This document shows positions 1,591 through 56,787 of a stretch of DNA of 64,000 nt, one piece after another. Made by a program: the position numbers and the translations under genes. Under the pieces are notes generated by a model. It saw only the letters and a program-made list of their open reading frames with translations, searched no databases and had not been told where the DNA came from. Numbering within the stretch: position 1 is the first letter of the stretch; each line of letters opens with the position of its first letter. Source of the DNA: an uncultured Anaerolineaceae bacterium (GTDB lineage: Bacteria > Chloroflexota > Dehalococcoidia > Tepidiformales > Tepidiformaceae); contig CAZDOK010000003.1 of the NCBI GenBank assembly GCA_964507025.1, forward strand, positions 115,123-179,122. The letters run 5' to 3'.

Positions 1591-1614
1591 GGCGTTCCTC
1601 CGGCGGGGCGCGGT

Positions 1615-3372: not shown

Positions 3373-3442
3373 GGTTCGTCCTCTTGGAGTCTCGGGGGTG
3401 GGCTGGCTCCCGTGGCCGGATAAGCCCACCCCGTCCTACCTG

Positions 3443-3631: not shown

Positions 3632-3646
3632 TTGATTTGCCTCCTG

Positions 3647-3673
3647 TGTACTCTTCCCTGCGGGAATCGTTCC
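3647..3673 (-). promoter_or_regulatory. Candidate ECF-type promoter upstream of flp copy 2 (GGAAC-N17-GTACA)
   Basis: On the minus strand, GGAAC (3673-3669) is followed after 17 nt by GTACA (3651-3647), which ends 15 nt before the flp ATG. The motif was read by eye only and the -10 is not a canonical CGTC. Confidence 0.2.
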
Positions 3674-3728
3674 GTCCGCTCGTTGCGCCTGACCGGCAAC
3701 GCGCCAGCGGACCTGCGCGTTGTCGGTG

Positions 3729-4632: not shown

Positions 4633-4736
4633 CGGATCGGCGCCTGTACGGGTAAGACGCGTGGTTCACTGGTTTGTTACGGGTTCTTCACCGAATTTCT
4701 CAGGGTTTTCCCTATATGAGGCAGTTCACACTGGCC

Positions 4737-32412: not shown

Positions 32413-32595
32413 ATGAACAGTGACGTTATCGCAAGTCCGGCTGAGCGGACCGAACAACGGGTCGCCAGCCCGGCCCGCGACTATCCGGTCGAGCCGGTGC
32501 GCTCGCAATGGGTGGTCGACCTCGTCTCACACAGGGTAGTGAAGCGTGCCGCGCGCTCGCCACTGCATGCACACGGGGATCCCGACGCATCGTGA
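32413..32595 (+). CDS. Small hypothetical ORF (60 aa) translationally coupled to glgE
   Basis: ATG 32413 preceded by GGGAGG. Its TGA stop (32593-32595) overlaps the GTG start of glgE (32592) as GTGA. Confidence 0.35.
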   Translation: MNSDVIASPAERTEQRVASPARDYPVEPVRSQWVVDLVSHRVVKRAARSPLHAHGDPDAS

Positions 32596-34598
32596 GTCCC
32601 GCTCCCGGGAGGCCGGGCCTGCCACCCCCTGCCGGGCGCCCCTCGCGGGTGGTGATCGAACGGGTCAGGCCCGAGGTCGACGCGGGCCGCTTCGCGGCGA
32701 AGCGCGTTGAGGGAGATACCGTCGAGGTCACAGCCACGATCTTTGCCGATGGCCACGAGGTCCTGGCTGCGGAGGTGCTTTTCCGCCGCGAGGGAGAGCG
32801 ATCGTGGTCCCGCGCATCAATGTGCCCGACCGTTAACGACCGCTGGGAGGGCGCCTTCCCGGTGCCCTCCATCGACCGGTATGCGTACACCGTGGAGGCA
32901 TGGATTGACCGCTACACGACCTGGCTCGAGCGGCTGGAGAAACGGCACGCGGCCGGCCAGGACCTCCAGGTCGAGTTCGAAGTCGGGGCGAGCATGCTGG
33001 CACGCGCGGCGGAACCCGCCCCCCGGTCCGATGCCCGTGTGCTGAATGAGGCCGCGGGCCGGCTCCCGTCGCTGGGGGCCGATGAGGGCGTCGCGCTCGC
33101 GCGGAGCGTGGCGGACGTCGCCCGGCGCCACCAGTCGCGGGGCTCCGTGGCGCGGTACTCCCGCATGCTGTCGCTGGTGGTCGAACGCGAACGTGCCGGG
33201 TTTGGCGCCTGGTACGAGTTCTTCCCCCGCTCGTTCGGGAAGGAGGGCGCCCACGGCACGTTAGCCGATGCGGAGAGTGTGCTGCCGTACATCCAGTCGA
33301 TGGGCTTCGACGTGGTGTACCTGCCGCCCATCCACCCCATCGGCACGTCTAACCGTAAGGGCCTGAACAACGCGCTCGAAGCCGCGCCAGGCGACCCGGG
33401 CAGCCCATGGGCGATCGGCTCAGAGGCGGGAGGTCACTGTGCCGTGCACCCCGAACTCGGCACGCTCGATGACTTCCGCCGCTTCCGCGAGAGGGCTGAG
33501 GGGCTCGGGCTGGACGTGGCGCTCGACCTTGCCTTTCAGTGTTCTCCTGACCACCCCTGGGTGTCCGAACACCCGGAGTGGTTCGAACACCTGCCCGACG
33601 GCTCAATTCGCCACGCCGAGAATCCGCCGAAGAAGTACGAAGACATCGTCCCGTTCGATTTCGAGTGCGACGAGTGGACCGCGCTCTGGGAGGCGCTCCG
33701 GGGAGTGGTCGCGTTCTGGATACGCCAGGGCGTGCGGATCTTCCGCGTCGACAATCCTCACACCAAGCCGTTTGCCTTCTGGGAGTGGCTGATCGACTCG
33801 ACCCGGCGCGATCACCCCGACGTCATCTTCCTCTCCGAGGCCTTCACGCGGCCGGCGGTCCTGCACTACCTGGCGAAGCTCGGCTTCAGCCAGTCGTACA
33901 ACTACTTCGCCTGGCGCAATACCCGCGATGAGCTGACCAGCTACGTGAACGAACTCATGACCGAGCCCGGACGCGACTATCTCCGCCCGAATTTCTGGCC
34001 GAATACGCCCGACATCCTGACGGGCTACCTGCAGGCTGGCGGGCGGCCCGCGTTCATGGTCCGGCTGGTGCTGGCGGCCACGCTCGGCGGGAGTTACGGC
34101 CTCTACGGGCCCGCGTTCGAGCTCTGCGAGGACCGGCCGCGCGAGCCCGGGTCGGAGGAATACCTCGATTCCGAGAAGTACCAGCTTCGCCGGTGGGACC
34201 TCGCGAATCCGTGGAGCCTGCGCGACTTCATCGGCCGGGTGAACGGCATCCGACGCCAGAGCCCGGCCTTCCGCAACGATGCGCGGTTCCGCTTCCACGA
34301 AACGGATAACGACCGGCTCATCTGCTACAGCCGCACCGCGCCCGGCGGCGAAACCGTGGTTGTGGTGGTCAACCTGGACCCGCACTTCAAGCAGACGGGG
34401 CACATCGAACTGGACCCGGCGGTGGTGCGCGTAGAGCCCGGGACGCAGTTCCAGGCCCACGACCTTTTGGGCGGTGGGCGTTACCTCTGGCAGGGAAGCC
34501 GGAATTACGTTGAACTGGATCCAGCAGTCACCCCGGCGCACATCTTCCTGTTGAGGACAGAGCGCCGCTCGGAGCGCGACTTCGAATACTTCCTGTAG
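32592..34598 (+). CDS. glgE: Alpha-1,4-glucan:maltose-1-phosphate maltosyltransferase
   Basis: [21 protein letters not shown]-domain, [30 protein letters not shown] and IFLSEAFT. Followed by treS-mak and glgB. Confidence 0.92.
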
Positions 34599-34611
34599 GG
34601 AGGGAGAACGC

Positions 34612-37600
34612 TTGACCAGCCCCACCCGCGCTGCCGCCGCAGCCAGTGTTGAACCGGCGAGCGATCCCCTTTGGTTCAAGGATGCTGTCATCTACGAGGT
34701 GCACGTCCGCGCTTTCATGGATGCGGACGGCGATGGGATGGGCGACTTCGCGGGCATGACGCAGAAGCTGGACTATCTCCAGGAACTCGGGGTCACGGCG
34801 ATCTGGCTCCTGCCGTTCTACGAATCCCCTTTGCGAGACGATGGGTACGACATCGCGGACTACCGCAAGATCCACCCTTCGTACGGCACGCTGCGTGACT
34901 TCAAGCGGTTCCTGGCCGAAGCGCACGCTCGGGGCCTGCGCGTCATCACCGAACTGGTGATCAATCACACGAGCGATCAGCACGCCTGGTTTCAGCGGGC
35001 GCGGCGGGCGCCGGAAGGCAGCGCCTACCGCGACTACTACGTGTGGAGCGACACGGCGACGGAGTACTCCGAGGCGCGAATCATCTTCAAGGACTTCGAG
35101 CGTTCGAACTGGACGTGGGACCCGGTTGCCGGGCAGTACTACTGGCACCGCTTCTATTCGCACCAGCCCGACCTGAACTTCGATAACCCGCGCGTGCGCC
35201 AGGAGATCCTCGACCTCGTCGACTACTGGTTTGCGATGGGCGTGGATGGATTCCGGCTCGATGCCGTGCCGTACCTGTTCGAACGCGAGGGCACCAGCTG
35301 CGAGAACCTGCCCGAGACTCACGCCTTCCTGAAGGAGCTGCGGGCCCACGTCGACCGGAAGTTCCCGGGCCGGATGCTGCTCGCCGAGGCCAACCAATGG
35401 CCCGAGGATGCAGCCCGCTACTTCGGCGATGGCGACGAATGCCACATGGCCTACCACTTCCCGCTCATGCCGCGCCTCTTCATGGCGGTCCGCATGGAGG
35501 ACCGGTTCCCCATCACCGAGATCCTGGACCAGACGCCCGAGATCCCTGAGAACACCCAGTGGGCCCTCTTCCTCCGCAACCACGATGAGCTCACCCTCGA
35601 GATGGTCACCGACGAAGAGCGCGACTACATGTACCGGGTATATGCGGCAGAGGACCGCGCGCGCATCAACCTGGGCATCCGCCGCCGGCTGGCGCCGCTT
35701 CTTGGCCACAACCGCCGCCTGATTGAGCTGATGAACGCCCTGCTGCTCTCGATGAATGGCACGCCCGTCATCTACTACGGCGACGAGCTCGGGATGGGCG
35801 ACAACATCTACCTGGGCGACCGCGACAGCGTGCGGACGCCGATGCAATGGAGCGCCGACCGCAACGCGGGGTTCTCGCGCGCCAACCCGCAGCGGCTCTA
35901 CCTGCCGGTGATCATCGATCCCGAGTATCACTACGAGTCGATAAACGTCGATGCCCAGCAGGCGAACCCGTCGCTCTTGCTCTGGTGGATGCGCCGCCTG
36001 ATCGCGTTGCGCACGCGCTACCGGGCCTTCAGCCGGGGCTCGATGACCTTCCTCGATACAGACAACCGGCGGGTGCTGGCGTTCCTCCGGGAGCACGATG
36101 GCGAGCGCATCCTGGTTGTCGCGAATCTGTCGCGATTTACGCAGGCCGTGAACGTGAACATCGGCGCCTGTGCGGGCCTCACGCCGGTCGAGATGTTCGG
36201 CCACACCCACTTCCCGCCCGTCACGCATGACCCGTACTTCCTCTCGCTGGGTCCCCATGCGTTCTACTGGTTCCTGCTCGAACCGGCATCGGGGCACGTC
36301 CAATCCGAACCGGGACAGGCCCCACCACTGATGGTGGACCGTGACTGGCAGGAACTGATCAACGGCCGCCGCAAGTCGCTCGAAGCCGCACTCTCTGTCT
36401 ACCTTCCCGGGCGCCGGTGGTTCGGCGCGAAGGCGCGCAATGCCCGGCGGCTGACGATCATCGAGGCCATTCCCTTCCGCACCCGCGGCGCGCCCGAGTC
36501 GGCCTACGTGCTGGCGCGCGTCGAGTACGACCAGGGCGAGCCGGATTGCTACGCCATCCTGCTTTCGGCCGTGCAGACCGACAGGGCCGCGGCCATCGAG
36601 AGAACCGTCCCGTGGGCGTTGATCACGACCATCGAAGACCGCGGCGGAACGGTGCTTCATCTCGTCGATGGGCTCGCGCTGCCCGAAGTCGCGTCAGCGT
36701 TCCTCGATGCGTTCCGGTCGCGCGCGAAATTCTCCAGCGCGAAGGGAACACTGGCCTTTTCCGTTGAGCCGGGCTTCCGCTACCGGCCCGGACCCGATGA
36801 ACCGCCTGCGGCGATCCACCGGGGAGAACAGAGCAACACCTCGGTCATCTACCCCGGCCGGTTCATCCTCAAGTTCATCCGCCGCGTCGAACCCGGCATC
36901 CACCCACAGGTCGAGATGCAGCAATTCCTGCGCGGCACGGAATTGGGCGATTCGGTGCCCCACCTGGCCGGGACCATCAGCTACTCGACGCCGGGACAGA
37001 AAGCGGCCGTGTCGGGAGTCCTCGAGGAGCTGGTGACGGCGCAGTACGACGCATGGACGTTCGCGGTCGACGAACTTGGGCGGATGTTGGAGGAGGTTGC
37101 GGCCGCGCGGATAGACCCGCCGGCGGTGCCCCGCCGCTCGCATCCGTTGGATGCCCCGGCCACTCCGCCTGTCATGCGGGAGGCTTCCGCATCGTGGCTG
37201 CAGTTCGCGCGCACCCTTGGCGAACGGACGGGCCACCTCCACGCCGCGCTCGCATCCGACCGCGAGAATCCCGCGTTCGCGCCGGAGCGGTACACGCCGT
37301 TCTACCAGCGAGCGCTGGCACAGGCATTCCGGGGCCAGGCGCGAGACGCCTTTCGTGTGCTGCGGGGGAAACTCGATGCCCTGGAAGAGGCCTCACGCGA
37401 ACGCGCGGAAACCGTGCTCGCCGAGGAGTCGGCAATCCTCAAGCGCCTCCAGGCGGTGGCCGACCGCCCGCTCGCCAGCGCCCGGATTCGTTGCCATGGC
37501 GACCTGCACCTCGGGCAGGTCCTGATCGCCGGCCGCGAACCCATCTTCATCGACTTCGAGGGTGAACCGGTCCGCTCGCTGGGCGAACGCCGGGTCAAGC

Positions 37601-37953
37601 GCTCGCCGTTGCGCGATGTCGCGGGAATGGTGCGCTCGTTCCACTACGCCAGCCGGCACGCGTTGCGCGAGCTCGTCGAATCGCAGGCGGCCGGCTCGGG
37701 GACCGACCTCGAGGCGTGGGCGCGGGCCTGGAACCTCTGGAGCGCCGCAGAGTACCTGGGCGGCTACTTCGACGTTGCCGGTTCCACGGGGCTGCTGCCT
37801 TCCGACACCGACGAGCATCGATTCTTGCTCGATAGCTTCCTGCTCGACAAGGCACTGTACGAAGTGCGCTACGAACTCGATAGCCGGCCCGCATGGGTTG
37901 ATATCCCGCTCCAGGGGATCGTCGAACTCATGGATGTCGCTATCCTCGATTGA
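34612..37953 (+). CDS. treS: Trehalose synthase fused to maltokinase (TreS-Mak/Pep2)
   Basis: GH13 TreS motifs ([39 protein letters not shown]) in the N-terminal ~600 aa. C-terminal ~450 aa is a maltokinase-like domain ([21 protein letters not shown]). TTG start lies 5 nt after GGGAGGGAG. Confidence 0.92.
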
Positions 37954-37971
37954 CCGCACCCGGAGGTGCCA

Positions 37972-39894
37972 ATGCCGCCCCATACCGCCGGAATGCCGGC
38001 TTCGCTGTTCACCACCGACGATCTCTACCTGTTCAACGAGGGCACGCACACACGCCTCTACCGCTCGCTGGGCGCGCACCCCGTGGTGCGCGATGGTGTC
38101 CCGGGCGTGAATTTCGCCGTCTGGGCGCCCAATGCCCGGGCAGTGAGCGTGGTGGGTGACTTCAACGATTGGGACGAGGGCGCCCACACGCTGGGGAACC
38201 TGGGTCCATCCGGTATCTGGGAAGGGTTCGTTGCTGGCGCCTCCGAAGGCCAGCGCTACAAGTTCGCCATCACCAGCAACCTGGGCGGCACGTTTCTCCG
38301 GGCCGACCCGTTCGCATTCCACGCCGAGGAAGCGCCGGCCACGGCCTCCATCGTCCACGATCTCGCATACGAATGGGGCGATGCCGGGTGGATGGCGGGC
38401 CGGGCCGCGCACAACCGGCACGATGGACCGATCTCCATCTACGAAGTGCATCTCGGCTCGTGGATGCGGGACCCGGAGGACGACCGCCTGCTGACCTATC
38501 GCGAACTGGCGCCGAAGCTCGCGCGTTACCTGGTCGACCACGGGTTCACGCACGTCGAGTTCCTGCCCGTGATGGAGCACCCGTTCTATGGCTCCTGGGG
38601 ATACCAGACGACCGGTTACTTCGCGGCGACCGGCCGCTACGGCACGCCCCAGGACTTCATGTACCTCGTGGATGTGCTCCACCAGAACGGCATCGCCGTG
38701 ATCCTGGACTGGGTGCCCTCGCACTTTCCCTCGGACGAGTTCGCCCTCGCGAAGTTCGATGGCTCGCACCTGTTCGAGCATGCCGACCCCCGCCGCGGCT
38801 ACCACCCCGACTGGGGCAGCCTCATCTTCAACTACGGTCGCCACGAAGTCCGGGCCTTCCTGCTCAGCAGCGCCCTCTTCTGGCTCGAGGTGTTCCACGC
38901 CGACGGCCTCCGCGTGGATGCCGTGGCCTCGATGCTGTACCTGGATTACTCACGCAAGGAAGGCGAGTGGATCCCGAACGTCTATGGCGGGCGCGAGGAC
39001 CTGGACGCGATCAGCTTCCTGCGCCAGCTGAACGAGGCCGCCTACGCGTTCGACCCCGGCATCCAGATGTTCGCCGAGGAATCGACAGCGTGGCCCGGCG
39101 TCTCGCGCCCGACCTACCTGGGTGGCCTGGGGTTCGGCTTCAAGTGGGACATGGGCTGGATGCACGACACGCTCAAATACATGGCTGAAGACCCGGTGCA
39201 CCGCAAGTACCATCACAACCTGCTGACATTCCGCGCCCTGTACGGCTTCACGGAGAACTTCGTGCTCGCGCTCTCGCACGATGAGGTGGTCCACGGCAAG
39301 GGATCGTTGCTGGGCAAGATGCCGGGCGACGACTGGCAGAAGTTCGCGAACCTGCGCACGCTGCTCGCCTACATGTGGTGCCTGCCGGGGAAGAAGCTGC
39401 TCTTCATGGGCGCGGAGTTTGGCCAGTGGGCGGAATGGAACCACGAGTCCAGCCTCGACTGGCACCTGGCGGGGTACGAACGCCACAACGGACTGCAGCG
39501 CCTGGTGGGCGACCTGAATGCGCTCTACCGGGGCAGCGCCGCCCTGCACCGCACGGATTGCGACCCGGTGGGCTTCGAGTGGATCGACTGCCACGATGGC
39601 GACCAGAGCACGCTCTCCTTCGTCCGCCGCACGGCCGATGGGAAGGAGGTGCTGGCGGTGGTCTGCAACTTCACGCCGGTGCCGCGGCCGAACTTCCGCG
39701 TTGGCGTGCCCGTGTCCGGTCACTGGCGCGAAGTGCTCAACACCGATGCGCCGATCTACGGCGGGAGCGGCCAGGGCAACCTGGGCGGCCTCGACACGGT
39801 GCCGATCCCTTCGCACGACGAGCCGCAGTCGCTGCTCATCACGCTACCCCCGCTCGCGGCGGTGGTGTTCAGGGCCGAAGCATCGCCGGACTGA
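37972..39894 (+). CDS. glgB: 1,4-alpha-glucan branching enzyme
   Basis: [47 protein letters not shown] and [12 protein letters not shown] 37972 lies 5 nt after GGAGG; the track start, GTG 37966, overlaps the SD. Confidence 0.92.
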
Positions 39895-42139
39895 CGGACC
39901 CTGCCGGCCGGGTGCCGGTGACGCCCTGCTCCTGGAGGCGGGCCAGCGCGTCCGCATCCAACCCCATCGCGGCCAGGACCTCCGCCGTGTGCTGCCCGAG
40001 TGTGGGCGCGGGCCCCGCGGCCTCGGGCCGGCCGTACTCCGCCCGGATAGGAAGCCCGGGGTAGAGGTGGAAGCCCACGTGGGCACGCTCTTCGCCCACC
40101 CAGAACCCTGCCTCGACCAGCGGTTCCAGCGAGAGGATTTCGCCCTCGCTGAGCACGGGAACCGCCACGATCCCGGCCGCGAGCAACCGGTCGACCAGCG
40201 CCGCCCGCGATTGGGTCGACGTCCATGCCGCGACGAGCTGTTCGATCTCGCCCTCTCTCGCCTGGCGGCCGGTGAGGGTGCGGAGCGCCGGGTCGCGGGC
40301 CCAGGGCTGGCCGATGGAATCGGCCAGGAGCTGCCAGTCGGTGTCCGAACGCACCTCGATAGCGACCCACTCGCCATCCGCACAGGGGAAGGCGCCGGAG
40401 GGCACACGGCCGCCGAGCCTGTTGCCGTTTCGCCGCGGCACGGTGGCGGTGCGCTGATAGTTCAGCAGGGCCTCGGAGACCAGCGGGATGAAGCCTTCGA
40501 GCTGAGCCGCCTCGATCACGCGGCCGCAGCCGTCGCGGCCGCGGGCGGCGAGCGCTGCAAGCAGGGCGATGGTGCCGGTGAGCCCGCTCACTGGGTCGCC
40601 GAGGGCGTTGCTGAGCATGACCGGCTCGCCGCCGGGGTAGCCGATCAGCGAGGTGAGCCCCGACATACCCTCGATGGTGTTGCCGAAGGTGACGTAGCCG
40701 CCCTCGGGGCCATCGCTGCCGAAGCCGGGCTGGCGGAGCATGATGAGCCCGGGGTTGTCCGCGCTCAGGCGTTCGTAGGTCAGGCCGAGCTTTTCGATGA
40801 TGCCCGCGCCGAAATTCTCGATGACGATGTCGGCCTCGTGGATGAGCCGGTGGGCGAGCTCGTTGCCGGCCGGGGTCGCGAGGTTGAGCGTGATGCCCCG
40901 TTTGCCGCGATTGACGGCATTGAAGACGTGGCTGCGTTCATGCAGGGCGAGCGCCGGGTCATCGCCCGGTGGGCGCGAGCCACGCCACCAGTCGAAGTGC
41001 GTGTGGCTTTCGACCTTGATGACGTCGGCCCCGACTGAGGCGAGGATGTGCCCCGCCAGCGGACCGGCCCACCCCATCGAAAGGTCGACGACCCGAAGGG
41101 CGCCCTCGCGCCAGGGCCCGCCCGGAGCGTGCGAGGCTCCGGCGCGGGAGTTCGTCCGCACGCGGGCCGGGGCGCCTGGCACTCGATACCGGCGGCCAGC
41201 AGGCGTCTCGACCTCGCGCCAGAATCCACGTGCCGCCAGTTGCGGCGAAGCGAGCACTTCCGGCATGTCCGGGTGGGCCGAACACGGGATGCGGTTGCGC
41301 TGAAGCTCGTGATAGACCTCCCAGCGCGTCCGCCGGGCGAGCCAGGGCAGGAGGTACTCGTCGAGCTGGCGGATGTTCTTCGAGCGTTCGCCGGGCGAGG
41401 CAAAGCGCGGGTCGTGGACCAGCTCATGGTGGCCGACCAGCCTCGCGAGCGTCACCCACTGGCTGTGGAGGGCGGCATGGATGCCGATGTGCCCGTCCTT
41501 GCAGGGCAGCGTCACGATGGTTGGCTGGTTGCGGCTATAGCGGTTGCCCACGCGGCCGCGCAGGGCGCCGTAGTATTGGAACGCGATGGAGTCGTAGATG
41601 AGGGTGGCGGCCATCCCCTCGATCTCCGAGACATCGATGAGCCCGCAGGCGTCGCCCCACCCCGCGTGGCGGGTGAGGGCCGCGATGGTGGCGTAGAGAC
41701 CTGCGATGAATTGGCCGAGGCTCACGGGCGCGGCCAGCGGCTCGCGGCCGGGTTCGCCCACCATGGTCATCCAGCCGCCGGCAGCGTACTGGGCCAGCTC
41801 AGTGGCCGGCCGCTCGCTCCATCTGGTGTCCGTGCCCCAGGGTGTGATCCACGCAACCAGCGCATGGCGGCGCAGTTCGTCGACGCGCTGCCGGGCGGCC
41901 GCGGAGACCGGGGCGTCCGTGATGAGGACGCCGCCGGGCTCGACCGCGAGCTCGGGCGTGTCGGTGTATGCCGCGCCCTCCGCGAGGAACGCGCCCATGC
42001 CTTCGGGATCGAGGGCGGTGGTGTGGGCAACCTCGGCACCGAACTGGCGCAGGAGCCACGCGGCATAGGCGGCCGCGATGCCGTGGGAGGCGACCGTGAA
42101 TCGTTGACCGGTGAGCAGGTCCATGTGGCCGCGCATCAT
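39869..42139 (-). CDS. Internally duplicated family III (CaiB/BaiF) CoA-transferase
   Basis: The C-terminal half is clearly family III ([64 protein letters not shown]). The N-terminal ~330 aa repeats the pattern more weakly ([36 protein letters not shown]). 756 aa. Confidence 0.8.
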
Positions 42140-42169: not shown

Positions 42170-45100
42170 TTACCAGGTGTCGACGTTGGGCCGCTTCTTC
42201 TCGCGACGCCCCGGCGGTGGTGGGACCGACTTCAGGGCCCGCGTCACCCAGGACCGTGAATCCAGCGGGTCGATGACGTCGTCGATCTCGAAGTGCGACG
42301 CGGTGTTGACGGCCTTGCCGCGCTCGTAGGAGCGGGCGACCATCTCGTCGAAGAGCCGCTTTCGCGCTTCGGGGTCTTCGATCGCGGCCAGCTCGTTGCG
42401 GTAGCCGAGTTTGACCGCGCCCTCGAGGCCCATCCCGCCGAATTCGCCGGTGGGCCAGGAGACGGTGAAGAACGGCGCCTTGAAGCTGCCACCCGCCATC
42501 GCCTGAGCGCCGAGGCCGTACGCCTTCCGCAGGATGATGGTGAACACGGGCACGCTCACGCTCGCGCCGGTCACGAACATCCGGGCGGCGTGGCGGACGA
42601 GGGCGGTCTTCTCGACTTCTGGCCCGACCATGATCCCCGGCGTGTCGCAGAGGAACAGGAGCGGGATGTCGAAGGCGTCGCAGAGCTGCATGAAGCGGGC
42701 CGCCTTGTCGGCGCCTTCGCTATCGATGGCGCCGGCCAGGTGCATCGGGTTGTTCGCCACGAGCCCCAGCGGCCGGCCCTCGATGCGGATGAGCGCGGTG
42801 ACCATGCCAGGCCCGAAGTCTCGCCGCAGTTCGAGCACCGAGCCGGCATCGGCCATCGTCTCGATGACCTTTCGCACGTCGTAGACACGCAGGCGATTCT
42901 CGGGGATGGCGCTCCGCAGCAGCCGCTGGTCGGCGCACTCCCACGCGGCAACCGGCCCCTGGAAATACGAGAGGTACTGTCTCGCCACGCGCACCGCTTC
43001 AGCCTCGTCATCGACGAGGACGTCGATGACGCCGTTTGGCGCCTGGACGCTCGCCGGACCGACTTCCTCGGGCCGGAAGATGCCGAGGCCGCCTCCTTCG
43101 ATCATCGCAGGGCCGCCCATGCCGATGTTCGAGTTCTTCGTTGCGATGACCACATCGCAGCAGCCGAGGATCGCCGCGTTCCCGGCGAAGCATCGGCCGG
43201 AGGTTATCCCAACGAGCGGCACCAGGCCGCTGAGCCTGCCGAAGTAGTGGAAAGCCATGCAGTCGAGCCCGGCGACGCCAACGCCGTCGGTGTCTCCGGG
43301 GCGCCCGCCGCCGCCTTCGGTGAAGAACACGACCGGCAGCCGGTGCTTTTCGGCCAGCTCGAACATGCGGTCTTTCTTGCGGTGGTTCTGCTGCCCCTGG
43401 GTGCCGGCCAGGACTGTGTAGTCGTAGGACATCAGGATGGCGCGCGCCTTCGCGTCGTCGAAGAGGTGACCGTTGACGCTCCCGACGCCTGCGATCATGC
43501 CGTCGGCTGGCGTCTTCTCGATGAGCTCTTCCAGCGGTCGCCGCCGCCGCTGGGCGGCAATCACCAGCGGGCCATACTCGATGAATGTGCCCGGGTCGCA
43601 GAGGTCTTCGATGTTCTCGCGGGCGGTCCGCTGACCTGTCTTGCGGCGTCGCGCGACGGCATCGGGCCGAGCCGCATCGAGGCCGACGGCGTGGCGCCGG
43701 TGGACCTCATCCAGGTCGGGCCGGATTCGATCGAGGTCGACTTCTGTCTCGGCGGCTGCTTCCTCCGTCGCGTCGCCCGTTTCCTGGATGAACACGACCG
43801 GGTGGCCGGGCATCACGGCCGCGCCGGGCGTCACGGCGACGCTCAGGACGATGCCGCCCGCATCGGCGGTGATGACGTGCTCCATCTTCATCGCTTCCAT
43901 GACCGCGACCTGCTGGCCGCGGCGCACCGCGTCGCCAGGGTTCACATCGATGGAGACGATGGTGCCCTGGAGCGGCGTGGGTATGGCGACCGTGCCATCG
44001 GGTGGAGGGGGGGCGCCGGGGGCACTGGAGGGCAGGGTCGCCTCGGCTTTCCCGTGGGCGAGGACTGCGAGGGGATCGCGGTTGTCGATCGTCGCACCCG
44101 CGCGTCCCACCGGGTTCGTGGGCGGTGGGACCGTCGCCGGGGTGGCTTCGAAGAACAGGCGGCGGTGCTCTTGCCCGCGCGGTGCCGCCAGTTCGGCGGC
44201 GTGCTCCTCGATGAAGCGCGTTGAGATCCGGTCGGCCACGAAGTCCGGGTGGTGGAAGAGGTTCTGCAGGAGCGGGATGTTCGTCGCCACGCCCTCGACG
44301 CGGAATTCGCAGAGGGCGCGATAGGTCTTCGCTACCGCGCCGGCGAAATCGCCGCCTGTGGAATGTACGACCAGCTTCGCAAGCAACGAATCGAAGTAGG
44401 GGCTGGTGGTGTAGCCGGTGTAGCCGAACGTGTCGGTTCGCAGTCCCGGTCCCGTTGGTGGCTCGAATGCGGTGAGCGTGCCCCCCGAGGGACGCGGCGA
44501 ACCGTCGGCGGCGACGGTTTCCATGTTCACCCGCGCCTGGATCGCAGAGCCTCGCGGGCGTGGGACGTCTGCCTGCTGGAGGTTGAGCGAAGCAAGCGTG
44601 GCACCCGCGGCGATGCGAAGCTGCGTGGTGACCAGGTCGATGCCCGTGACCTCCTCGGTGACCGTGTGCTCGACCTGCAAGCGGGGGTTCGCCTCGATGA
44701 AGGCGATCGCGTGGGCCCCGTAGGGCGAGCTTCCGTCGATCAGGAACTCGAACGTTCCAAGGTTCTTGAAGCGGACCGCCTCGGCCATGCGGACCGCGTA
44801 ACCGGTCAGCCGCTCGCGCAGGTCATCGGTGAGCCCGGGGCTCGGCGCAACCTCGACGAGCTTCTGGTTCCGGCGCTGGATCGTGCACTCGCGCTCCCAG
44901 AGGTGGCTGACGTGGCCGGTGCCATCGCCCACCACCTGGACTTCGATGTGGCGCGCGACCGGGATGAGCCGCTCGACATAGAGATCGCCGTTGCCGAATG
45001 CGGAACGAGCCTCGGACTGGCAGCGGGTGAAGGCTTGTTCGAGGTCCTCCTGCCGTGTGACCGGGCGCATGCCTCGCCCGCCGCCCCCTGCGACCGCCTT

Positions 45101-45574
45101 CACCATCAGGGCTGCTCCCTCGCCGAGCGACGCCATGAACGCGCGGGCCTCGTCCAGGGTGGTAGGCCCCGAGGTGCCCGGCAGCACGGGCACACCCAGC
45201 TCGGCCGCGAGCGCCCGCGCGCGCGCCTTATCGCCGAAGAGGTCGAGCACTTCGGGCTGTGGGCCCACGAAGGTGATGCCGTCCTGGGTGCAGCGCCGGG
45301 CGAAGGCGGCGTTCTCGCTCAGGAGACCGTATCCGGGATGGATCGCGTCGCACCCGGAGGCAATAGCGATACGCACGATCTGGGCGGCATCGAGATAGGC
45401 GGCCGCTCCCTGTCCTTCGAGCCGCCGGGCCTCGTCCGCCCGGCGAACGTGCAGCGATGCCGCATCGTCGTCGGAGTAGATGGCCACGGTTCGAATGCCG
45501 AGTTCGGCGGCGGCGCGGATGACCCGGATGGCGACTTCTCCCCGGTTCGCGACGAGCAGGGTGGTGATGCTCAT
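42170..45574 (-). CDS. Single-chain biotin-dependent acyl-CoA carboxylase (BC - BCCP - carboxyltransferase fusion)
   Basis: Biotin carboxylase (LLVANRGEVAIRVIRA, GGGGRGMR, EANPRLQVEHTVTE). Biotinyl domain with VMEAMKMEH. C-terminal AccD/PccB-like CT domain (YDYTVLAGTQG, FFTEGGGGRPGD, MGGPAMIEGG). 1134 aa. Confidence 0.9.
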   Translation of the reverse strand: MSITTLLVANRGEVAIRVIRAAAELGIRTVAIYSDDDAASLHVRRADEARRLEGQGAAAYLDAAQIVRIAIASGCDAIHPGYGLLSENAAFARRCTQDGITFVGPQPEVLDLFGDKARARALAAELGVPVLPGTSGPTTLDEARAFMASLGEGAALMVKAVAGGGGRGMRPVTRQEDLEQAFTRCQSEARSAFGNGDLYVERLIPVARHIEVQVVGDGTGHVSHLWERECTIQRRNQKLVEVAPSPGLTDDLRERLTGYAVRMAEAVRFKNLGTFEFLIDGSSPYGAHAIAFIEANPRLQVEHTVTEEVTGIDLVTTQLRIAAGATLASLNLQQADVPRPRGSAIQARVNMETVAADGSPRPSGGTLTAFEPPTGPGLRTDTFGYTGYTTSPYFDSLLAKLVVHSTGGDFAGAVAKTYRALCEFRVEGVATNIPLLQNLFHHPDFVADRISTRFIEEHAAELAAPRGQEHRRLFFEATPATVPPPTNPVGRAGATIDNRDPLAVLAHGKAEATLPSSAPGAPPPPDGTVAIPTPLQGTIVSIDVNPGDAVRRGQQVAVMEAMKMEHVITADAGGIVLSVAVTPGAAVMPGHPVVFIQETGDATEEAAAETEVDLDRIRPDLDEVHRRHAVGLDAARPDAVARRRKTGQRTARENIEDLCDPGTFIEYGPLVIAAQRRRRPLEELIEKTPADGMIAGVGSVNGHLFDDAKARAILMSYDYTVLAGTQGQQNHRKKDRMFELAEKHRLPVVFFTEGGGGRPGDTDGVGVAGLDCMAFHYFGRLSGLVPLVGITSGRCFAGNAAILGCCDVVIATKNSNIGMGGPAMIEGGGLGIFRPEEVGPASVQAPNGVIDVLVDDEAEAVRVARQYLSYFQGPVAAWECADQRLLRSAIPENRLRVYDVRKVIETMADAGSVLELRRDFGPGMVTALIRIEGRPLGLVANNPMHLAGAIDSEGADKAARFMQLCDAFDIPLLFLCDTPGIMVGPEVEKTALVRHAARMFVTGASVSVPVFTIILRKAYGLGAQAMAGGSFKAPFFTVSWPTGEFGGMGLEGAVKLGYRNELAAIEDPEARKRLFDEMVARSYERGKAVNTASHFEIDDVIDPLDSRSWVTRALKSVPPPPGRREKKRPNVDTW

Positions 45575-48205: not shown

Positions 48206-48382
48206 CCCGAAGGGCTCGGCGGCCTTCCGCGTGAGGCACGTCACAGAGCGGGGGCGGTCTCCATGGGTTCTCCAGAAACCCTGAAGGAGGGCTTCAGGTA
48301 ACCGGTGCTCGCACTGCCTACCGTTGAGTGTGCCAGGGGATTGGCCCCTGCAGCAGAGACACGCAACAGGAGAACCACTGCA

Positions 48383-48955
48383 ATGACTCAGATCGAAACC
48401 GCTCCGACCATCCGCAACGGCGTCAACGTCGATACCATGTTCGCCACGCTCGACGCGATCAAGGCGACGCCTGCCATTGCCCAGTTCAAGTGGCGCGCGA
48501 AGAACACGTGGATGGGCGGCTCGCACAACCGCTCCACTATCCAGGGCTTCTATGCAGCCCTTCAGGAAGACACGTCGCGCTCCAGCGCCTTCACCGTCGA
48601 CGCGGGCGAGCCCGGCATTCTCCTCGGTCACGACGAAGGCCCGAACCCCGCCGAGTACCTGCTCCATGCGCTGGTAGCCTGCCTCACGACATCGCTGGTC
48701 TACGTCGCCGCGGCTCGCGGCGTGCGCCTCACCGAAGTGTCCTCGGTGATCGAGGGCGACATGGACGTGCAGGGCGCGCTGGGCCTCAACAACGAGGTGC
48801 GCAATGGCTTCCAGAACATCCGCGTCACCTTCACAGTGAAGGGCGATGCCCCGAAGGAGAAGCTCCAGGAAGTGGTCGCCCGGGCGCAGTCGCGGTCGGC
48901 CGTGTTCGACAGCATCACCCGGGGCGTGCCGGTCACGGTCCAGCTCGCTGACTAA
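48383..48955 (+). CDS. OsmC family peroxiredoxin-like protein
   Basis: Track ORF 48305..48955 trimmed to ATG 48383. GPNPAEYLLHALVACLT and SAVFDSITRGVPV are typical OsmC/Ohr-fold segments with conserved Cys. Confidence 0.85.
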   Translation: MTQIETAPTIRNGVNVDTMFATLDAIKATPAIAQFKWRAKNTWMGGSHNRSTIQGFYAALQEDTSRSSAFTVDAGEPGILLGHDEGPNPAEYLLHALVACLTTSLVYVAAARGVRLTEVSSVIEGDMDVQGALGLNNEVRNGFQNIRVTFTVKGDAPKEKLQEVVARAQSRSAVFDSITRGVPVTVQLAD

Positions 48956-49093: not shown

Positions 49094-49729
49094 ATGCCCC
49101 GACTTCGCCAGGTCTCGCGTTCTGCAGCCTCGCCCGAGGCTCTCGCCGCCTACAGCCGTCTCTTTGGGGAGCGTGACCCTGTCACGCAGCCCGGCACGGC
49201 CACGGGAACGCCAGGCAACTGGTGGACCGTGTTCGCACTTGTGCCGGACATCCTCGTCCACGCGCAGGACGGGTTCAGCCTGCTCAACAGCCGCCGCCGC
49301 ACGCTCACGCCCTACTTCCGCGAACTCGGCATCACGCGCGCGGGGTTCGTGGCCGGGAGCCAGTTTGTGTTTTCTCAACATTGCAAGGCCGCGCGCGCGG
49401 CCGGGATCCCGGAGGAGAAGCTCGCGGCTATCCCCGCGTGGCCGGCCGCCACGGTTTTCGACGCGGCGGACCGGGCGGTCCTCGCCTATGCCGACGAGAT
49501 GGTGCTGCAGGACGGGCGAGTACAGGATGTCACCTTCGCCGCCCTCAGAACGCACCTCATCGACGAGGCGATCCTCGAACTCACGTACGCGGTGGCGATG
49601 TACCGCCTCCATGCGACGGTCTGCCGGGCGCTCCGGCTGGAATACGACGACATCGATGAGCGGGTGGTAGAGATCGCCGCACCTTCGGGCGGCGCGGCCG
49701 CCGACGTGATGAGCCAGATCTCACGCTGA
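49094..49729 (+). CDS. Carboxymuconolactone decarboxylase (AhpD-like) family protein
   Basis: RELGITRAGFVAGSQFVFSQHCKAARAAGIPEEKLAAI resembles the CMD-domain core; 211 aa. Confidence 0.7.
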   Translation: MPRLRQVSRSAASPEALAAYSRLFGERDPVTQPGTATGTPGNWWTVFALVPDILVHAQDGFSLLNSRRRTLTPYFRELGITRAGFVAGSQFVFSQHCKAARAAGIPEEKLAAIPAWPAATVFDAADRAVLAYADEMVLQDGRVQDVTFAALRTHLIDEAILELTYAVAMYRLHATVCRALRLEYDDIDERVVEIAAPSGGAAADVMSQISR

Positions 49730-52217: not shown

Positions 52218-52583
52218 ATGGCGTTTCAGTTCCTGGACCAGCAAGACTTCATCGAAATGCGGCTGTTCGGCGAGATCTCGGGCGCACGGGAGCCCGAGGT
52301 TGAGTGGCTTGAGCGCCTCAGCGCCCGCGGCCGCCTCCTGATTGACGCTTCCGAGGTCGCTGCGATCACTGCCGACGTGCTCTGGATGGCTGGCGTAGTG
52401 AACCGGGCTCGCAGTTTCGGCCCGTTTTGGACGGCGATATTCGCGCCGGGCGACCTGGTGTTTGGCGTGCTTCGCCAGGTTTCCGCCTATCGCGCGCACG
52501 ACGCACAGGATGTGAACTTCTTCCGTGAGCGCGAGGCCGCGGAGGAGTGGCTACGCTCGCGGGAAGGTTTGCCAGCGGCCTGA
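52218..52583 (+). CDS. STAS/SpoIIAA-like small protein, tentative
   Basis: 121 aa. GGGGAAGAGG upstream of the ATG. General resemblance to STAS-like DUF proteins (FIEMRLFGEIS, LLIDASEV). The assignment is weak. Confidence 0.4.
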   Translation: MAFQFLDQQDFIEMRLFGEISGAREPEVEWLERLSARGRLLIDASEVAAITADVLWMAGVVNRARSFGPFWTAIFAPGDLVFGVLRQVSAYRAHDAQDVNFFREREAAEEWLRSREGLPAA

Positions 52584-52609
52584 TAGGATGGCCCGCGTGG
52601 AGGCTGCGG

Positions 52610-53461
52610 ATGACCGTTGATAGCTACAAGTACCTTCCCCGCTCGATGCGGACCATGTATGAGGCCACTCCGGTCATCGATGAGCCGCCGGCCTGGGCTC
52701 CCCTTCCGAAACCACTGCATCACTGCACTATCGCCCTTATGACCTCCGCAGGGATCTACCTGCGCGATTCGCAGGAACCCTTCGATGTCGAACGCGAACG
52801 GCGCGAACCGACCTGGGGCGACCCGACCTACCGCATCATCCCCCGCGATGTCCGCTCGGAGGACATTGCCTGCTCGCACCTCCACATCAGCCACGATGAT
52901 CTCCTGGAGGATGCCGACGTGGTGCTGCCGATCCGGGCGTTCACGGCGCTTGAGGCGGAGGGCCGGGTGGGGCGCCTGGCCGATGAGCACTACTCGTTCA
53001 TGGGCTACCAGGACCGCCGGCTCATCGACTGGCAAACAGTGCAGGGGCCCGAGCTTGCCGCGCGGTTGAAGGAGCGCGCGGTTGATATCCTGCTCCTGGC
53101 GCCTGCCTGACCGGACTGCTGCCGAAACGTGCCCGTGCTGGCGCGTACCATCGAAAACCTCGGCATCCCCACCGTCACGGTCACCATGATCCCGGACCTG
53201 GCGATGAAGTTCCGGCTCTCCCGGGTGGTGGGCGTGGAGTTCCCGTTCGGGCACAGCTTCGGCACGCCCCACAACGATGCGCTGATGCTGACGGTCGCGC
53301 GAGCCGCATGCCAGGCGCTGGAGGAAGCAGGCGCCCCGGGCTACCGGATCGATGTCGACGTGGAATGGCCGGTGCCACTGGAGATTGCGTACAAGACGTG
53401 GCATCCGCCCGTGCCGAGCCCCATCGTTGCCGAGATGCTGAAGCGCCGCCAGGGCGGCTAG
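52610..53461 (+). CDS. GrdB-family (glycine/sarcosine/betaine/D-proline reductase selenoprotein B-like) protein with an in-frame TGA at 53108-53110, a candidate selenocysteine
   Basis: Track ORFs 52547..53110 and 53129..53461 share one frame and are separated only by the TGA and six sense codons. Read-through gives DILLLAPA-U-PDCCRNVPVLARTIENLGIPTVTV. Family-like segments LPIRAFTALEAEGRVGRLADEHYSFMGY. No SD precedes the second half. ATG 52610 lies after the upstream gene stop. Confidence 0.6.
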
Positions 53462-56400
53462 GAGACCGCGGCGCGCCGGGCCAACACCTCGCCGATGCGC
53501 TGGCGTACGTCGCGCTTCGCGGCGGCAAGGTCGCGTATCGGTTCTTCGTGGCGAGGCTCGGTGAACACGAATCGCACCCCTGCGACCTCCCGCCCCAGCG
53601 CGGCTTCGAGGGCGACCGCGTAGGCCGCGCCCTGGAGCCGGTAGCGTTGCATCGCTTGTTCGATGTCGTCGAGGCTCCGGGCGGAGTCCGTCTTGTAGTC
53701 CACCACGACCAGCCCCTCGGGCCCCTCGTAGAGGAGGTCGATGAACCCTTCGACCGTTGCGCCCTCCACCTGCGTGCCGACGTAGACTTCGCGCCAGTAG
53801 CGGCCGGAAGCCACGGCCTCGCGCACCGCGGCCGATTGACGGGCATTCTCGGCGAGCCGCGCGATGCGGGCGTCTTCTCCGGCGATGCCTTCGGCCACGG
53901 CCTGCGCGCGGGCGGCGTCGTCGAGGCCCGTGCCGGTCTGCAGGTCGATGGTCTGCAGGACAGCGTGCACCGCGCGCCCGACGGATGTGCCGGCGCGGCC
54001 CTTGCGCCAGGGCTGCCGCTCATCGTCTGGCGGTGACTTCTCGGGTTCTTCCTCGCCGCCGTGGGCGATCGCGGTCGCCGCGAGCACCGGCGCGTGCCGC
54101 GTCTGCTGGAGCAATGCGGCACGCTCGGCGATCCAGCGCTCGCGAGCCCCGGGCGAATCGGCGACAGGCTGACTGGCGGGTTCGGGTAGACCAAGAGCGA
54201 GCGGCACGTTGTAGCGTTCCCACGTCCCGTCCTGGCCCTGTTCGACGCAGATGGAGAGGAGGCATTCGGCGTGCGAGCAGGTATCGCCGGAGTGGCGCTC
54301 ATCGTGGGGAGTCTTGTGATGGGCGTGGTAGAGCGACACGACCAGCCGCCGTTTCGCGCGGGTCGCCGCCACGTAGAGGAGCCGGTCGCGTTCCAGCCGC
54401 TGGTGGCGGCGCTCGAGGGCTGCGACCTGGTCGTAGCCGGCGGTCTGGAAGGGCCGTTCCTTCAGGCCGGCCCGGACCTCGACCGCCCCGTGTTCGTGGA
54501 TTCGGCCGGGCCAGATGACGTTGTCATCGCGGTTGAACGGCTCGACGCCGAGCCCCGCGAGGAACACGATGTCAAACTCGAGGCCCTTCGCCGCGTGGAT
54601 GGTCATGATCCGGATAGCGTCGTCGTCGGGTTCCTTCGCCACGCCCTCGTTCACCCGGGCGCGTTCTTCTTCCTGGGTGCGGAGCCACTCAACGAACTGC
54701 CGGAGCGTGGTGAGCGCGCCGGACTCATCGAGGCCGCGGGCCTGCTCTGCGACGAACCGGAGCCGGCGCCACGATTCCCGAGGGCGCGGGCCAGCCACCG
54801 CCAGCTCGAGCATGTGGCGCGCGGCGATGACCTCCTCGATGAGCGCGCCCGTGCTGACGTACCACTTACGCCGGTGGAATTCGCGGAAGGATTCCATGCC
54901 CGTGCGCACGCACTCCGGGCTGTCGTCCGGTACGCGGGAGAGGTAGTTCCATCGTCCGCCCGCCTGGACGTGTGCCAGCAGGTCGCCATCGCGGCATGCG
55001 AAGGCAGGCGACCGCAGGGCCGCCACCACGGAGACGTCGTCGGTCGGGTCATCGATGGCTGCGAGGATGTTCGACAGGTCGCGGACGTCCTGCGTGGCAA
55101 ACACGAGCGACTGGCTCTCCATACGGAACGGGATGCCCGCGTCGCCCAGGGCCCGCTCGATCGCTGGCGAGTTGGTACGCGTCGGCAGGAGGATTGCCAT
55201 GTCGGCGAAGCGGGTGCCATTAGGTCCCCCCAGCCAGTCCTCGTTGCGTGCGGCGACGATGGCCGCGGCGAGCGCCGAAGCCTCCTCCCGGCGGACATCG
55301 TCTGCTCTCGCGCCTGGCTCGAGCGGCCCGCCCATTAACAGGACCGGGTGGTCGGGTGGTGGTGTGGGCCCGGGCTGCAGGGGAACCCACTCGGCCTGCC
55401 GCACCCCGGCACCCGAATCACGGGCAAAGAGGCGTTCGAAGACCGCATTGACCCACGTGAGGATCACCGCCTGCGAGCGGAAGTTCGTCACGAGCGGGAC
55501 CGGCTCGCACCCGAAGGCATCCCGCGTGCGCTCGTAGAGGTCGATATCGGCCCGGCGAAACCGGTAGATCGACTGCTTGGGGTCGCCGACGAAGAAGAGG
55601 CGGCCGGGTTCGACTTCCGCCCGGGTCCAGTGGTCTGGCGGGGCGGCAGGCCCGCCCGCGAGCAGGGCGGCGAGCTCGACCTGCAGGGGGTCGGTGTCCT
55701 GGAACTCGTCGATGAGGATGCGCTGGTACCGCTCATGGAGCGCGTGGCGCACGTGAGCGTTCGTACTGAGCAACCTGACCGCGAGCACAAGAAGGTCCTG
55801 GAACCCGAGGTATCCAGCGGAGCGCCGTTCGGCGGCGTAGTCCAGGGCGAACTGCTTGAGGCCGGGCAGGATTGCCGTGAGGCAGGCGCGCCTGGCCTGC
55901 CCCAGCCAGTCGGCGTGCCTGGCCGCCGCGGTCTTGAGCACGCCGGTCTTGCCCACGCCCCTGATCCTGGGGAACGCAGCGACGAGCCGCAGCAAGTCGA
56001 CCTCGGCGTTCTCCCGTTCGGAAGCATCGCGCGCGTTGCGCACGCGGGCGGCTGCCGCGCCGACGTTCGCGAGGGGCGTGGCGAGCTCCGCAAAATGTGC
56101 GATCGCCTTCTGGGTCGGCTTTGGCCCCTGCTCCGCCTTCGCGTCTTCGAGCGCAGCGATGACCGCCGGCTCGGCCAAATCGGGCTCGGGCGCCGCGACG
56201 AACTCCGTCCCGTCCAGGCGATCCCAGTTCTTGTGGAACTCCTTCGCGACGGGCTCCAGGTCCTTCGGACGGAGTCCAAGGGTGAGGGCGCGGAGCAGGG
56301 GCCGGTGCAAGACCGGGTCGCTGAAGAGCTCGTCCTTGAACTGGGCCCAGCGGTCGCGGAAGGCGATGTCGCCCTCGACTTCGTCCATGATGCGCAGTTC

Positions 56401-56787
56401 CGGTGGCAGACCGGCCTCGAGCGGGTAGAGCGAAAGGATGCGCTGGGCGAAGGAGTGGAGCGTCTGAATGGCGGCACGGTCCAGGTCCGGGAGTGCCTCC
56501 GCGCACCGTGTCCGCTCGCCGGCCGGCAATGACTCGTAGCCCTCGCCACCCGAGGCGGCAAGCTCCAGGTGCTTGCGGACGCGCTCGCTCAGCTCGGCCG
56601 CCGCTTTTTCGGTGAAGGTGATCGCCGCGATGTGTTCGACCGGAACCCCGGAGCGGATCAGTGCGACGATGCGGCCCACCAGCTCGGTCGTCTTGCCCGT
56701 GCCCGCGCCCGCCTCAACGAACAGGGTAGCGTCCAGGTCGCGGGCGATGCGCTCGCGGGCGGCACGGTCCGGGAGATGCTCACTCAT
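53458..56787 (-). CDS. addA: AddA/RecB-type ATP-dependent helicase-nuclease subunit (UvrD-like helicase + PD-(D/E)XK nuclease)
   Basis: Walker A VEAGAGTGKTT and UvrD/Rep motifs (ITFTEKAAAEL, LIDEFQDTDPLQ, VGDPKQSIYRFRRAD). C-terminal RecB nuclease motif GFIDLLYEGPEGLVVVDYKTD. Start overlaps the addB stop by 8 nt. Confidence 0.88.
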   Translation of the reverse strand: MSEHLPDRAARERIARDLDATLFVEAGAGTGKTTELVGRIVALIRSGVPVEHIAAITFTEKAAAELSERVRKHLELAASGGEGYESLPAGERTRCAEALPDLDRAAIQTLHSFAQRILSLYPLEAGLPPELRIMDEVEGDIAFRDRWAQFKDELFSDPVLHRPLLRALTLGLRPKDLEPVAKEFHKNWDRLDGTEFVAAPEPDLAEPAVIAALEDAKAEQGPKPTQKAIAHFAELATPLANVGAAAARVRNARDASERENAEVDLLRLVAAFPRIRGVGKTGVLKTAAARHADWLGQARRACLTAILPGLKQFALDYAAERRSAGYLGFQDLLVLAVRLLSTNAHVRHALHERYQRILIDEFQDTDPLQVELAALLAGGPAAPPDHWTRAEVEPGRLFFVGDPKQSIYRFRRADIDLYERTRDAFGCEPVPLVTNFRSQAVILTWVNAVFERLFARDSGAGVRQAEWVPLQPGPTPPPDHPVLLMGGPLEPGARADDVRREEASALAAAIVAARNEDWLGGPNGTRFADMAILLPTRTNSPAIERALGDAGIPFRMESQSLVFATQDVRDLSNILAAIDDPTDDVSVVAALRSPAFACRDGDLLAHVQAGGRWNYLSRVPDDSPECVRTGMESFREFHRRKWYVSTGALIEEVIAARHMLELAVAGPRPRESWRRLRFVAEQARGLDESGALTTLRQFVEWLRTQEEERARVNEGVAKEPDDDAIRIMTIHAAKGLEFDIVFLAGLGVEPFNRDDNVIWPGRIHEHGAVEVRAGLKERPFQTAGYDQVAALERRHQRLERDRLLYVAATRAKRRLVVSLYHAHHKTPHDERHSGDTCSHAECLLSICVEQGQDGTWERYNVPLALGLPEPASQPVADSPGARERWIAERAALLQQTRHAPVLAATAIAHGGEEEPEKSPPDDERQPWRKGRAGTSVGRAVHAVLQTIDLQTGTGLDDAARAQAVAEGIAGEDARIARLAENARQSAAVREAVASGRYWREVYVGTQVEGATVEGFIDLLYEGPEGLVVVDYKTDSARSLDDIEQAMQRYRLQGAAYAVALEAALGREVAGVRFVFTEPRHEEPIRDLAAAKRDVRQRIGEVLARRAAVS

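Follow-up and report, generated by a model that had tools for sequence, protein, structure and literature searches.

A probable selenoprotein gene annotated as two reading frames

Positions 52610-53461 of the window (the term stands here for the whole 64-kb stretch of DNA that was analysed) very probably hold one gene, which would encode a 283-residue selenoprotein of the GRDB (GrdB/PrdB) superfamily, with the UGA codon at 53108 read as selenocysteine (Sec). We place high confidence in this reading, which was reached by comparative sequence analysis. We observe a single frame across the UGA, membership of this family, a Cys/Sec column at the site of the UGA, conservation of the UGA itself and nucleotide-level constraint on a hairpin that follows it. 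The features are listed in Table 1.

The open reading frames (ORFs) 52547..53110 and 53129..53461 lie in the same frame, at an offset of 582 nt, and the region between them comprises a single TGA (53108-53110) followed by six sense codons, CCG GAC TGC TGC CGA AAC (53111-53128), just as an earlier sequence-only reading of this DNA had described. Translation through the TGA yields ...VDILLLAPA-U-PDCCRNVPVLARTIENLGIPTVTVTMIP... or, given as a longer string, ...VDILLLAPA-U-PDCCRNVPVLARTIENLGIPTV..., with the motif U167-P-D-C170. We take ATG 52610 as the true start codon instead of GTG 52547 of the listed ORF, because a GGAGG sequence is found 6 nt upstream of this ATG and because the homologues begin with MTVDSYKYLPRS; from this start the product has 283 residues and the recoded position is 167. 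No Shine-Dalgarno (SD) sequence was found ahead of GTG 53129, in the upstream sequence GACCGGACTGCTGCCGA. The sequence-only reading had noted this lack correctly, but we could not substantiate its further statement that GGAGG-type sites precede nearly all genes of the window: an SD core is present at 18 of the 36 longest-ORF starts, many of which are uncertain.

Public gene calls treat the two parts of the gene separately. The 166-aa part has more than 100 homologues (63-93% identity) that are entered in databases at about 166 aa and hence end at the same codon, and the 110-aa part from GTG 53129, which has no Pfam match, is called as a gene of its own. The C-terminal 116 codons are conserved in frame in all loci and can be aligned to the C-terminal half of the full-length Cys forms of the family. 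A scan of the window for TGA codons flanked by coding signal identified 53108 as the only TGA at which the coding signature is strong both before and after the codon; besides the PrdB-like gene, the scan returned two false positives, both of which can be explained. In the annotation, we suggest, one 283-aa selenoprotein should replace the two ORFs of 166-187 aa and 110 aa.

Table 1. Features of the predicted selenoprotein gene, of an alpha-glucan gene cluster in the same window and of a clade-B locus with Sec genes. Coordinates refer to the window, except in the rows that name locus L054, where they refer to that locus.
Feature	Coordinates	Strand	Evidence or remark
Shine-Dalgarno sequence GGAGG	52599..52603	+	read from sequence; 6 nt before start codon
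Predicted complete PrdB-like GRDB-family selenoprotein gene, 283 codons and TAG	52610..53461	+	translation, Pfam GRDB, end-to-end alignment with Cys homologues
N-terminal 166 codons, separate 166-aa protein in public gene calls	52610..53107	+	homologue entries of ~166 aa
UGA predicted to be read as selenocysteine, Sec167	53108..53110	+	TGA in 70/70 loci; Cys (TGC) in full-length homologues; six assemblies
Six codons P-D-C-C-R-N from TGA to GTG, translated	53111..53128	+	amino acids kept, codons synonymously variable
TGC of Cys170, likely the resolving Cys of U-x-x-C (Cys171 at 53120-53122)	53117..53119	+	invariant, 50/50 in clade A
Candidate SECIS hairpin	53127..53146	+	fold, consensus stem, synonymous constraint, absent from Cys forms
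C-terminal 116 codons; from GTG 53129 annotated as 110-aa ORF	53111..53458	+	in-frame conservation, alignment to Cys forms
TAG stop codon of the predicted selenoprotein gene	53459-53461	+	
GlgE maltosyltransferase	32508-34598	+	
Alpha-amylase/TreS-like protein (1113 aa) fused to maltokinase N-terminal cap domain	34612-37953	+	
GlgB-type branching enzyme	37966-39894	+	
Locus L054, TGA of PrdB-like gene	~1446		
Locus L054, selD	2455-3519	+	
Locus L054, tRNA-Sec	3595-3690	-	
Locus L054, selB	3718-5628	-	
Locus L054, selA	5631-7013	-	

Conservation of the UGA and of the codons around it

We retrieved 71 related genome loci, 70 of which reach the TGA site. All 70 have TGA at exactly the codon that corresponds to 53108, with conserved in-frame sequence after it; they come from at least four phyla (the taxa include Dehalococcoidia, Tepidiformaceae, other Chloroflexota, Acidimicrobiia, Acidobacteriota, Rhodobacteraceae, SAR116 and Gammaproteobacteria) and their protein identity goes down to about 25%. 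The identical 166-aa call is present in 16 metagenome contigs; the six of these that we retrieved, which derive from different sequencing runs, match the window at 99.6-100% identity (0-3 mismatches within the gene), and all of them have TGA. The sequence-only reading had left room for a recent TGC-to-TGA nonsense mutation or for a sequencing error, to which an assembly error may be added. A single base change would indeed turn TGC into TGA, but the codon is retained across phyla and in independently assembled contigs, and the 116 codons downstream of it are still under purifying selection, so we consider a pseudogene or an artefact exceedingly improbable.

The residues that follow the TGA were analyzed in the alignment of clade A, which comprises 50 sequences; at the protein level, the most divergent of them are about 45% identical to the query. 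In the stretch P-D-C-C, Pro and both Cys residues are found in all 50 sequences and Asp in 47, and synonymous variants occur among the codons of PDCCR (GAC/GAT, TGC/TGT and five codons for Arg). Since the six codons between TGA and GTG are conserved at the level of amino acids and variable at synonymous sites, they are translated and do not constitute a spacer. This finding bears directly on the possibility that the TGA is a true stop, that translation re-initiates at GTG 53129 and that the two resulting polypeptides assemble. Such a split gene would agree with the two ORFs of the gene-caller annotation, with the invariance in clade A of a GTG located 18 nt past the TGA, and with the fact that the Sec machinery of the source genome is deduced indirectly. 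Amino-acid selection on six codons that include both Cys residues of the motif is, however, unexpected in an untranslated spacer, the GTG lacks an SD sequence, and its invariance has another explanation, namely its position in the stem of the hairpin described below; moreover, the Cys forms are single ORFs, and the homologue from clade B is located beside tRNA-Sec, selB, selA and, in some loci, selD. We therefore regard two separately translated polypeptides as highly unlikely, and a single recoded gene remains our preferred reading.

A candidate SECIS element downstream of the UGA

A hairpin with a 7-bp stem begins 16 nt after the UGA; it consists of the 5' arm ACGUGCC (53127-53133), the loop CGUGCU (53134-53139) and the 3' arm GGCGCGU (53140-53146). 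In a local fold of 27 nt it has a minimum free energy (MFE) of -11.1 kcal/mol (z -2.29), and 5 of 200 shuffled sequences are as stable. The fold of 81 nt after the TGA is not more stable than shuffled sequences (z -0.40), and it is only the 27-nt local hairpin that stands out. The sequence-only reading had seen no convincing SECIS hairpin by eye in the 60 nt after the TGA; folding of the region downstream of the TGA, which it had itself proposed, reveals that this caveat was mistaken.

The hairpin is under selection at the nucleotide level. In the 50 clade-A sequences, codons +6 to +10 (AAC GUG CCC GUG YUG) exhibit no synonymous variation at all, except for a C/U alternation in the loop (the first position of a Leu codon), whereas ten other invariant codons with four-fold or six-fold degeneracy, used as a control from the same alignment, exhibit 0.9-1.9 bits of synonymous entropy. 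The wobble position of the Ala codon +11 is G or A in 48 of the 50 sequences, either of which pairs with the opposing U. RNAalifold recovered a consensus stem in the 50 sequences and no compensatory changes within clade A, because the stem is invariant; for the same reason the support for the hairpin comes from the constraint on synonymous sites and from the Cys-form controls, not from covariation. As to these controls, the Cys-form genes use other codons across the same residues and have no hairpin.

A second control is provided by the divergent proteobacterial clade B (19 loci), which exhibits this kind of constraint on another sequence: it contains an invariant GC-rich block at codons +4 to +9 (ACG CGC GCC GUG UGC GGG), the flanks of which are free to vary. 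The loop motif CGUGY is also found in the MFE fold of one further locus (L051), and in clade B drawing it requires an alternative fold, 3.9 kcal/mol above the MFE, so that its recurrence across clades as a common loop motif is suggestive only. Bacterial SECIS elements have been described as stem-loops that closely follow the UGA and bear a small G-containing apical loop (PMC1088965). The hairpin at 53127-53146 fits these published features, and we propose it as a candidate SECIS element. Rfam searches gave no match at the gathering thresholds in the whole window, and in the vicinity of the site they gave only noise at E-values up to 10 (snoZ206 and mir-598, E 2-3).

Family membership and the Cys/Sec column

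For the family searches, U was replaced by C in the read-through protein. The Pfam family GRDB (PF07355) was matched with 33.3 bits, above its gathering score of 22, by residues 32-163, which correspond to positions 219-344 of the 347 in the model; the match stops four residues before the TGA codon. The best match in NCBIfam was PrdB (TIGR04483, E-value 1.7e-38), which spans residues 23-240 and thus covers the Sec site, with a score of 132.4 bits that lies below the curated cut-off of 300. Scores were likewise under the cut-off for TIGR01918 (46.3 bits versus 65.45), TIGR01917 (43.5 versus 602), NF040794 (48.6 versus 800) and NF040795 (41.8 versus 775); the models of GrdB, GrdF, GrdH and of selenoprotein B in general all remained below theirs. 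The selenoprotein-B models are covered only from about 211 to 406, and the protein does not have their full-length architecture of about 430 aa. Thus, the assignment to the "GrdB family" made by the sequence-only reading holds at the level of the Pfam GRDB domain, which is matched above threshold, but not at the level of the curated GrdB and PrdB models, and we assign the protein to an orphan PrdB-like subfamily. We do not call it PrdB in the strict sense, both because it scores below the curated cut-off and because the window contains no PrdA partner. The NCBI curated selenoprotein-B models miss this subfamily, which may be the reason why its members lack an annotation as selenoproteins.

Five full-length homologues (279-309 aa, 45-50% identical) can be aligned with the read-through protein from end to end and possess Cys at the column of the TGA, in a C-P-D/G-C motif. 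A profile search revealed two further Cys forms, for which we checked at the DNA level that the codon in this column is TGC, and in the wider family Cys occupies the column in 61 of 83 more distant full-length representatives. The alignment to GRDB homologues therefore places the TGA on the Cys/Sec column. It bears out what the sequence-only reading had stated of this family, namely Sec or Cys just before a conserved segment (given there as ARxIE-GIPTV, here as the ARxxE-GIxTV helix), and, together with the hairpin and the conservation of the TGA at all loci, it agrees with the proposal made there of a candidate Sec in a UxxC motif.

Residues other than Cys are also encountered in this column. 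Gly is present in the full-length homologues P0249, P0274, P0281, P0310, P0313 and others (e.g. LAPN-G-PDCCKNVPVLARHLE), and Trp in the full-length database homologues P0279 and P0298. These residues may arise where metagenome gene callers apply genetic code 25 or 4 and so translate TGA, in which case the entries would be hidden Sec forms.

A profile built from the Cys forms detected 843 relatives. Among the best 120 of these 843 matches, 108 end at the Sec codon and 12 are full length, which indicates that the same erroneous split affects many public entries; Sec forms make up about 90% of the listed homologues.

Genes for selenocysteine decoding

No tRNA was detected by ARAGORN in the 64-kb window. 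SelA, SelB and SelD were detected neither by tblastn with clade-B queries in the window and the clade-A flanks, nor by Pfam scans of 40 ORFs of the window, and tRNA-Sec, selA, selB and selD are absent from the flanks of all 49 clade-A loci. The Chloroflexota (Tepidiformaceae-like) host is predicted to decode Sec on the evidence of the PrdB-like gene itself.

A different arrangement was found in the 19 loci of clade B, where Sec genes form a compact block with the homologue, at distances of up to about 6 kb from it: 18 of the loci have tRNA-Sec, 17 selB, 12 selA and 11 selD, several of the contigs being truncated. The loci with this block of Sec genes (L052 and L054-L071) belong to marine Rhodobacteraceae, SAR116/Puniceispirillales, Porticoccaceae and Halieaceae. 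In the literature that we searched we found no mention of a linkage between the PrdB-like gene and Sec genes. Judged by gene order, the linkage in clade B ties the PrdB-like family directly to Sec decoding.

These data also bear on whether the UGA might be read through without selenium, either by near-cognate decoding as Trp or Cys or as a consequence of genome-wide reassignment of UGA. The W or G found in the column of some full-length homologues would suit this explanation (these residues may be translations of TGA under an alternative code), as would the absence of Sec machinery from the window. Reassignment throughout the genome is excluded by the use of TGA as the stop codon of 21 of the 35 other genes in the window. 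Against read-through without selenium in general stand the hairpin, which is conserved, is located where a bacterial SECIS element would be and occurs only in the TGA forms, the proteobacterial homologue that adjoins tRNA-Sec, selB, selA and partly selD, and the report of selenoprotein-rich Dehalococcoidia (PMC13326102). We conclude that decoding without selenium is very unlikely, and that insertion of Sec accounts best for the UGA.

A more speculative and, in our view, rather doubtful reading takes the lack of a PrdA partner, the proportion of Sec forms (about 90%) and the block of Sec genes in marine Rhodobacteraceae, SAR116 and Porticoccaceae as hints that the PrdB-like protein is the main reason why these apparent aerobes keep the Sec machinery. 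On this reading the protein might even take part in the handling of selenium, for instance in the reduction of a selenium compound for use by SelD.

Structural model and proposed mechanism

For a Cys form AlphaFold predicts, with high confidence (pLDDT 91, pTM 0.92), an alpha/beta fold in which the active Cys/Sec site lies between the strand 161-165 and the helix 169-184. In this model the position of Sec167 is just after the beta-strand, one residue before the alpha-helix and three residues from Cys170. A phmmer search detected no solved relatives in the PDB, and Foldseek, used with the same Cys-form model, reported no match at E <= 1e-3.

We propose that at UGA 53108-53110 the hairpin located 16 nt downstream would recruit SelB-GTP with Sec-tRNA(Sec), that Sec would be inserted at this codon and that translation would run on to the TAG at 53459-53461. 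Binding of SelB, incorporation of selenium and insertion at UGA 53108 in dependence on SelB and SECIS are predicted here from the known mechanism of Sec insertion in bacteria. In the protein Sec167 would be the attacking nucleophile and Cys170 would resolve it with formation of a selenenylsulfide, which could then be reduced again by a dithiol donor such as thioredoxin. This putative chemistry of Sec167 and Cys170 is based on the UxxC motif, on its position by the N-terminus of a helix and on the likeness to PrdB and to UxxC/CxxC enzymes; the resolving role of Cys170, in particular, follows from the analogy with UxxC and CxxC redox proteins.

Genomic neighbourhood

PrdA, GrdE, PrdC and GrdA were found neither in the Pfam scans of 40 window ORFs nor in the precomputed annotation of the flanks, and across the 49 clade-A loci no conserved partner gene was found beyond close relatives. 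As there is no PrdA pyruvoyl partner, the protein is probably not a D-proline reductase; on the basis of gene content we classify it as a probable orphan PrdB-like enzyme. The orphan family is widespread, consists mostly of Sec-containing members and has no partner subunit, which makes it a reasonable target for biochemistry. That these proteins form a stand-alone family of selenoenzymes, distinct from proline-reductase subunits and with a fold that has no solved relative in the PDB, is a tentative idea that we consider rather doubtful. The main value of the finding consists in the correction of the annotation and in the pointer to an uncharacterised orphan subfamily.

The local neighbours of the gene encode an acyl-CoA dehydrogenase, an OsmC protein, an AhpD-like CMD protein, a GlcD-like FAD oxidase and a 121-aa protein without a Pfam match, and the convergent neighbours are a helicase-nuclease pair of the AddA/AddB type. 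The ORF of 121 aa (52218-52583, plus strand) ends 27 nt before the start of the predicted selenoprotein; its adjacency to the PrdB-like gene is conserved in about 7 loci, all from close relatives. On the other side, the end of the predicted selenoprotein gene with its TAG (53458-53461) overlaps by 4 nt with the 3' end of the convergent gene of a 1109-aa UvrD/PD-(D/E)XK helicase-nuclease (53458-56787, minus strand), which leaves no space for a terminator between the two genes. The genes of the OsmC-like protein (48305-48955, plus strand) and of the AhpD-like CMD protein (49094-49729, plus strand), situated 3-5 kb upstream, are ordinary ORFs without an in-frame TGA. Both of these families have Sec-containing members in marine metagenomes (PMC2398784); a link of OsmC or CMD to the PrdB-like gene is unsupported outside close relatives.

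Several other groups of genes were recognized in the window. A cluster of the GlgE pathway of alpha-glucan metabolism occupies positions 32508-39894 on the plus strand (Table 1). An all-in-one acyl-CoA carboxylase of 1134 aa, which combines the biotin carboxylase, biotin carrier and carboxyltransferase domains, is encoded on the minus strand at 42170-45574; the adjoining ORF of 756 aa (39869-42139) contains a family III CoA-transferase domain. Positions 1-4632 (minus strand) contain genes for the assembly of a Tad/Flp pilus (RcpC/CpaB, TadE/G-like and a response-regulator/ParA-like ATPase) and, after these, the gene of an ECF-type sigma factor.

Comparison with known systems

The candidate hairpin resembles the SECIS element of the E. 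coli fdhF type in being a stem-loop within the coding sequence after the UGA, with a small apical loop that contains G and U. It differs from known bacterial SECIS elements in that it matches no Rfam model, and its binding to SelB is only predicted.

With GrdB, GrdF and GrdH, the substrate-specific selenoprotein B components of the reductases for glycine, sarcosine and betaine, the protein shares the match to Pfam GRDB. We take Sec167 to correspond to the Sec position of GrdB (near residue 350), given that the Pfam GRDB match ends at residue 163 with model position 344 of 347. In comparison with GrdB of about 430 aa, only the C-terminal ~210 residues are matched, and the N-terminal half of GrdB is missing here. 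The motif is also different, UxxCC instead of the UxxCxxC of GrdB (PMC13188914). None of grdA, grdE, grdC and grdD is located nearby.

D-proline reductase cleaves D-proline reductively to 5-aminovalerate, and PrdB was reportedly described by Kabisch et al. in 1999 as the selenocysteine subunit of this enzyme in Clostridium sticklandii / Clostridioides difficile. PrdB (TIGR04483) is the best match of our protein in NCBIfam and is similar to it in size (283 aa versus 238 in the model), and both contain the UxxC motif (for PrdB, see PMC13188914). The differences are the score of 132 bits against a cut-off of 300, the absence of prdA, prdC and other prd genes from the 64-kb window, and the lack of a conserved partner gene in the 49 loci related to this gene.

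The closest parallel is provided by the UxxC selenoproteins of pfam07355 termed "proline reductase PrdB", which in the Sargasso Sea, with 42 genes, ranked among the selenoprotein families of highest abundance (Zhang et al. 2005, PMC1088965), and for which the Global Ocean Sampling (GOS) data comprise 235 Sec forms and 110 Cys forms (Zhang and Gladyshev 2008, PMC2398784). Our gene shares with this marine family the Pfam domain and the UxxC motif, as well as its occurrence in genomes without a Stickland-type prd operon, and Sec forms outnumber Cys forms both in GOS (235 versus 110) and among the relatives of this gene (108 of the best 120). By contrast, this copy originates from a high-GC (67.5%) member of Chloroflexota, the nearest named metagenome-assembled genomes (MAGs) being Tepidiformaceae and Dehalococcoidia; the protein is only about 25-31% identical to those of the marine Rhodobacteraceae/SAR116 clade, its putative SECIS sequence is different, and the gene is not adjacent to sel genes. 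PrdB-like UxxC selenoproteins have thus been catalogued since 2005, and the gene described here is not a new kind of system but adds to them a member from the Chloroflexota lineage.
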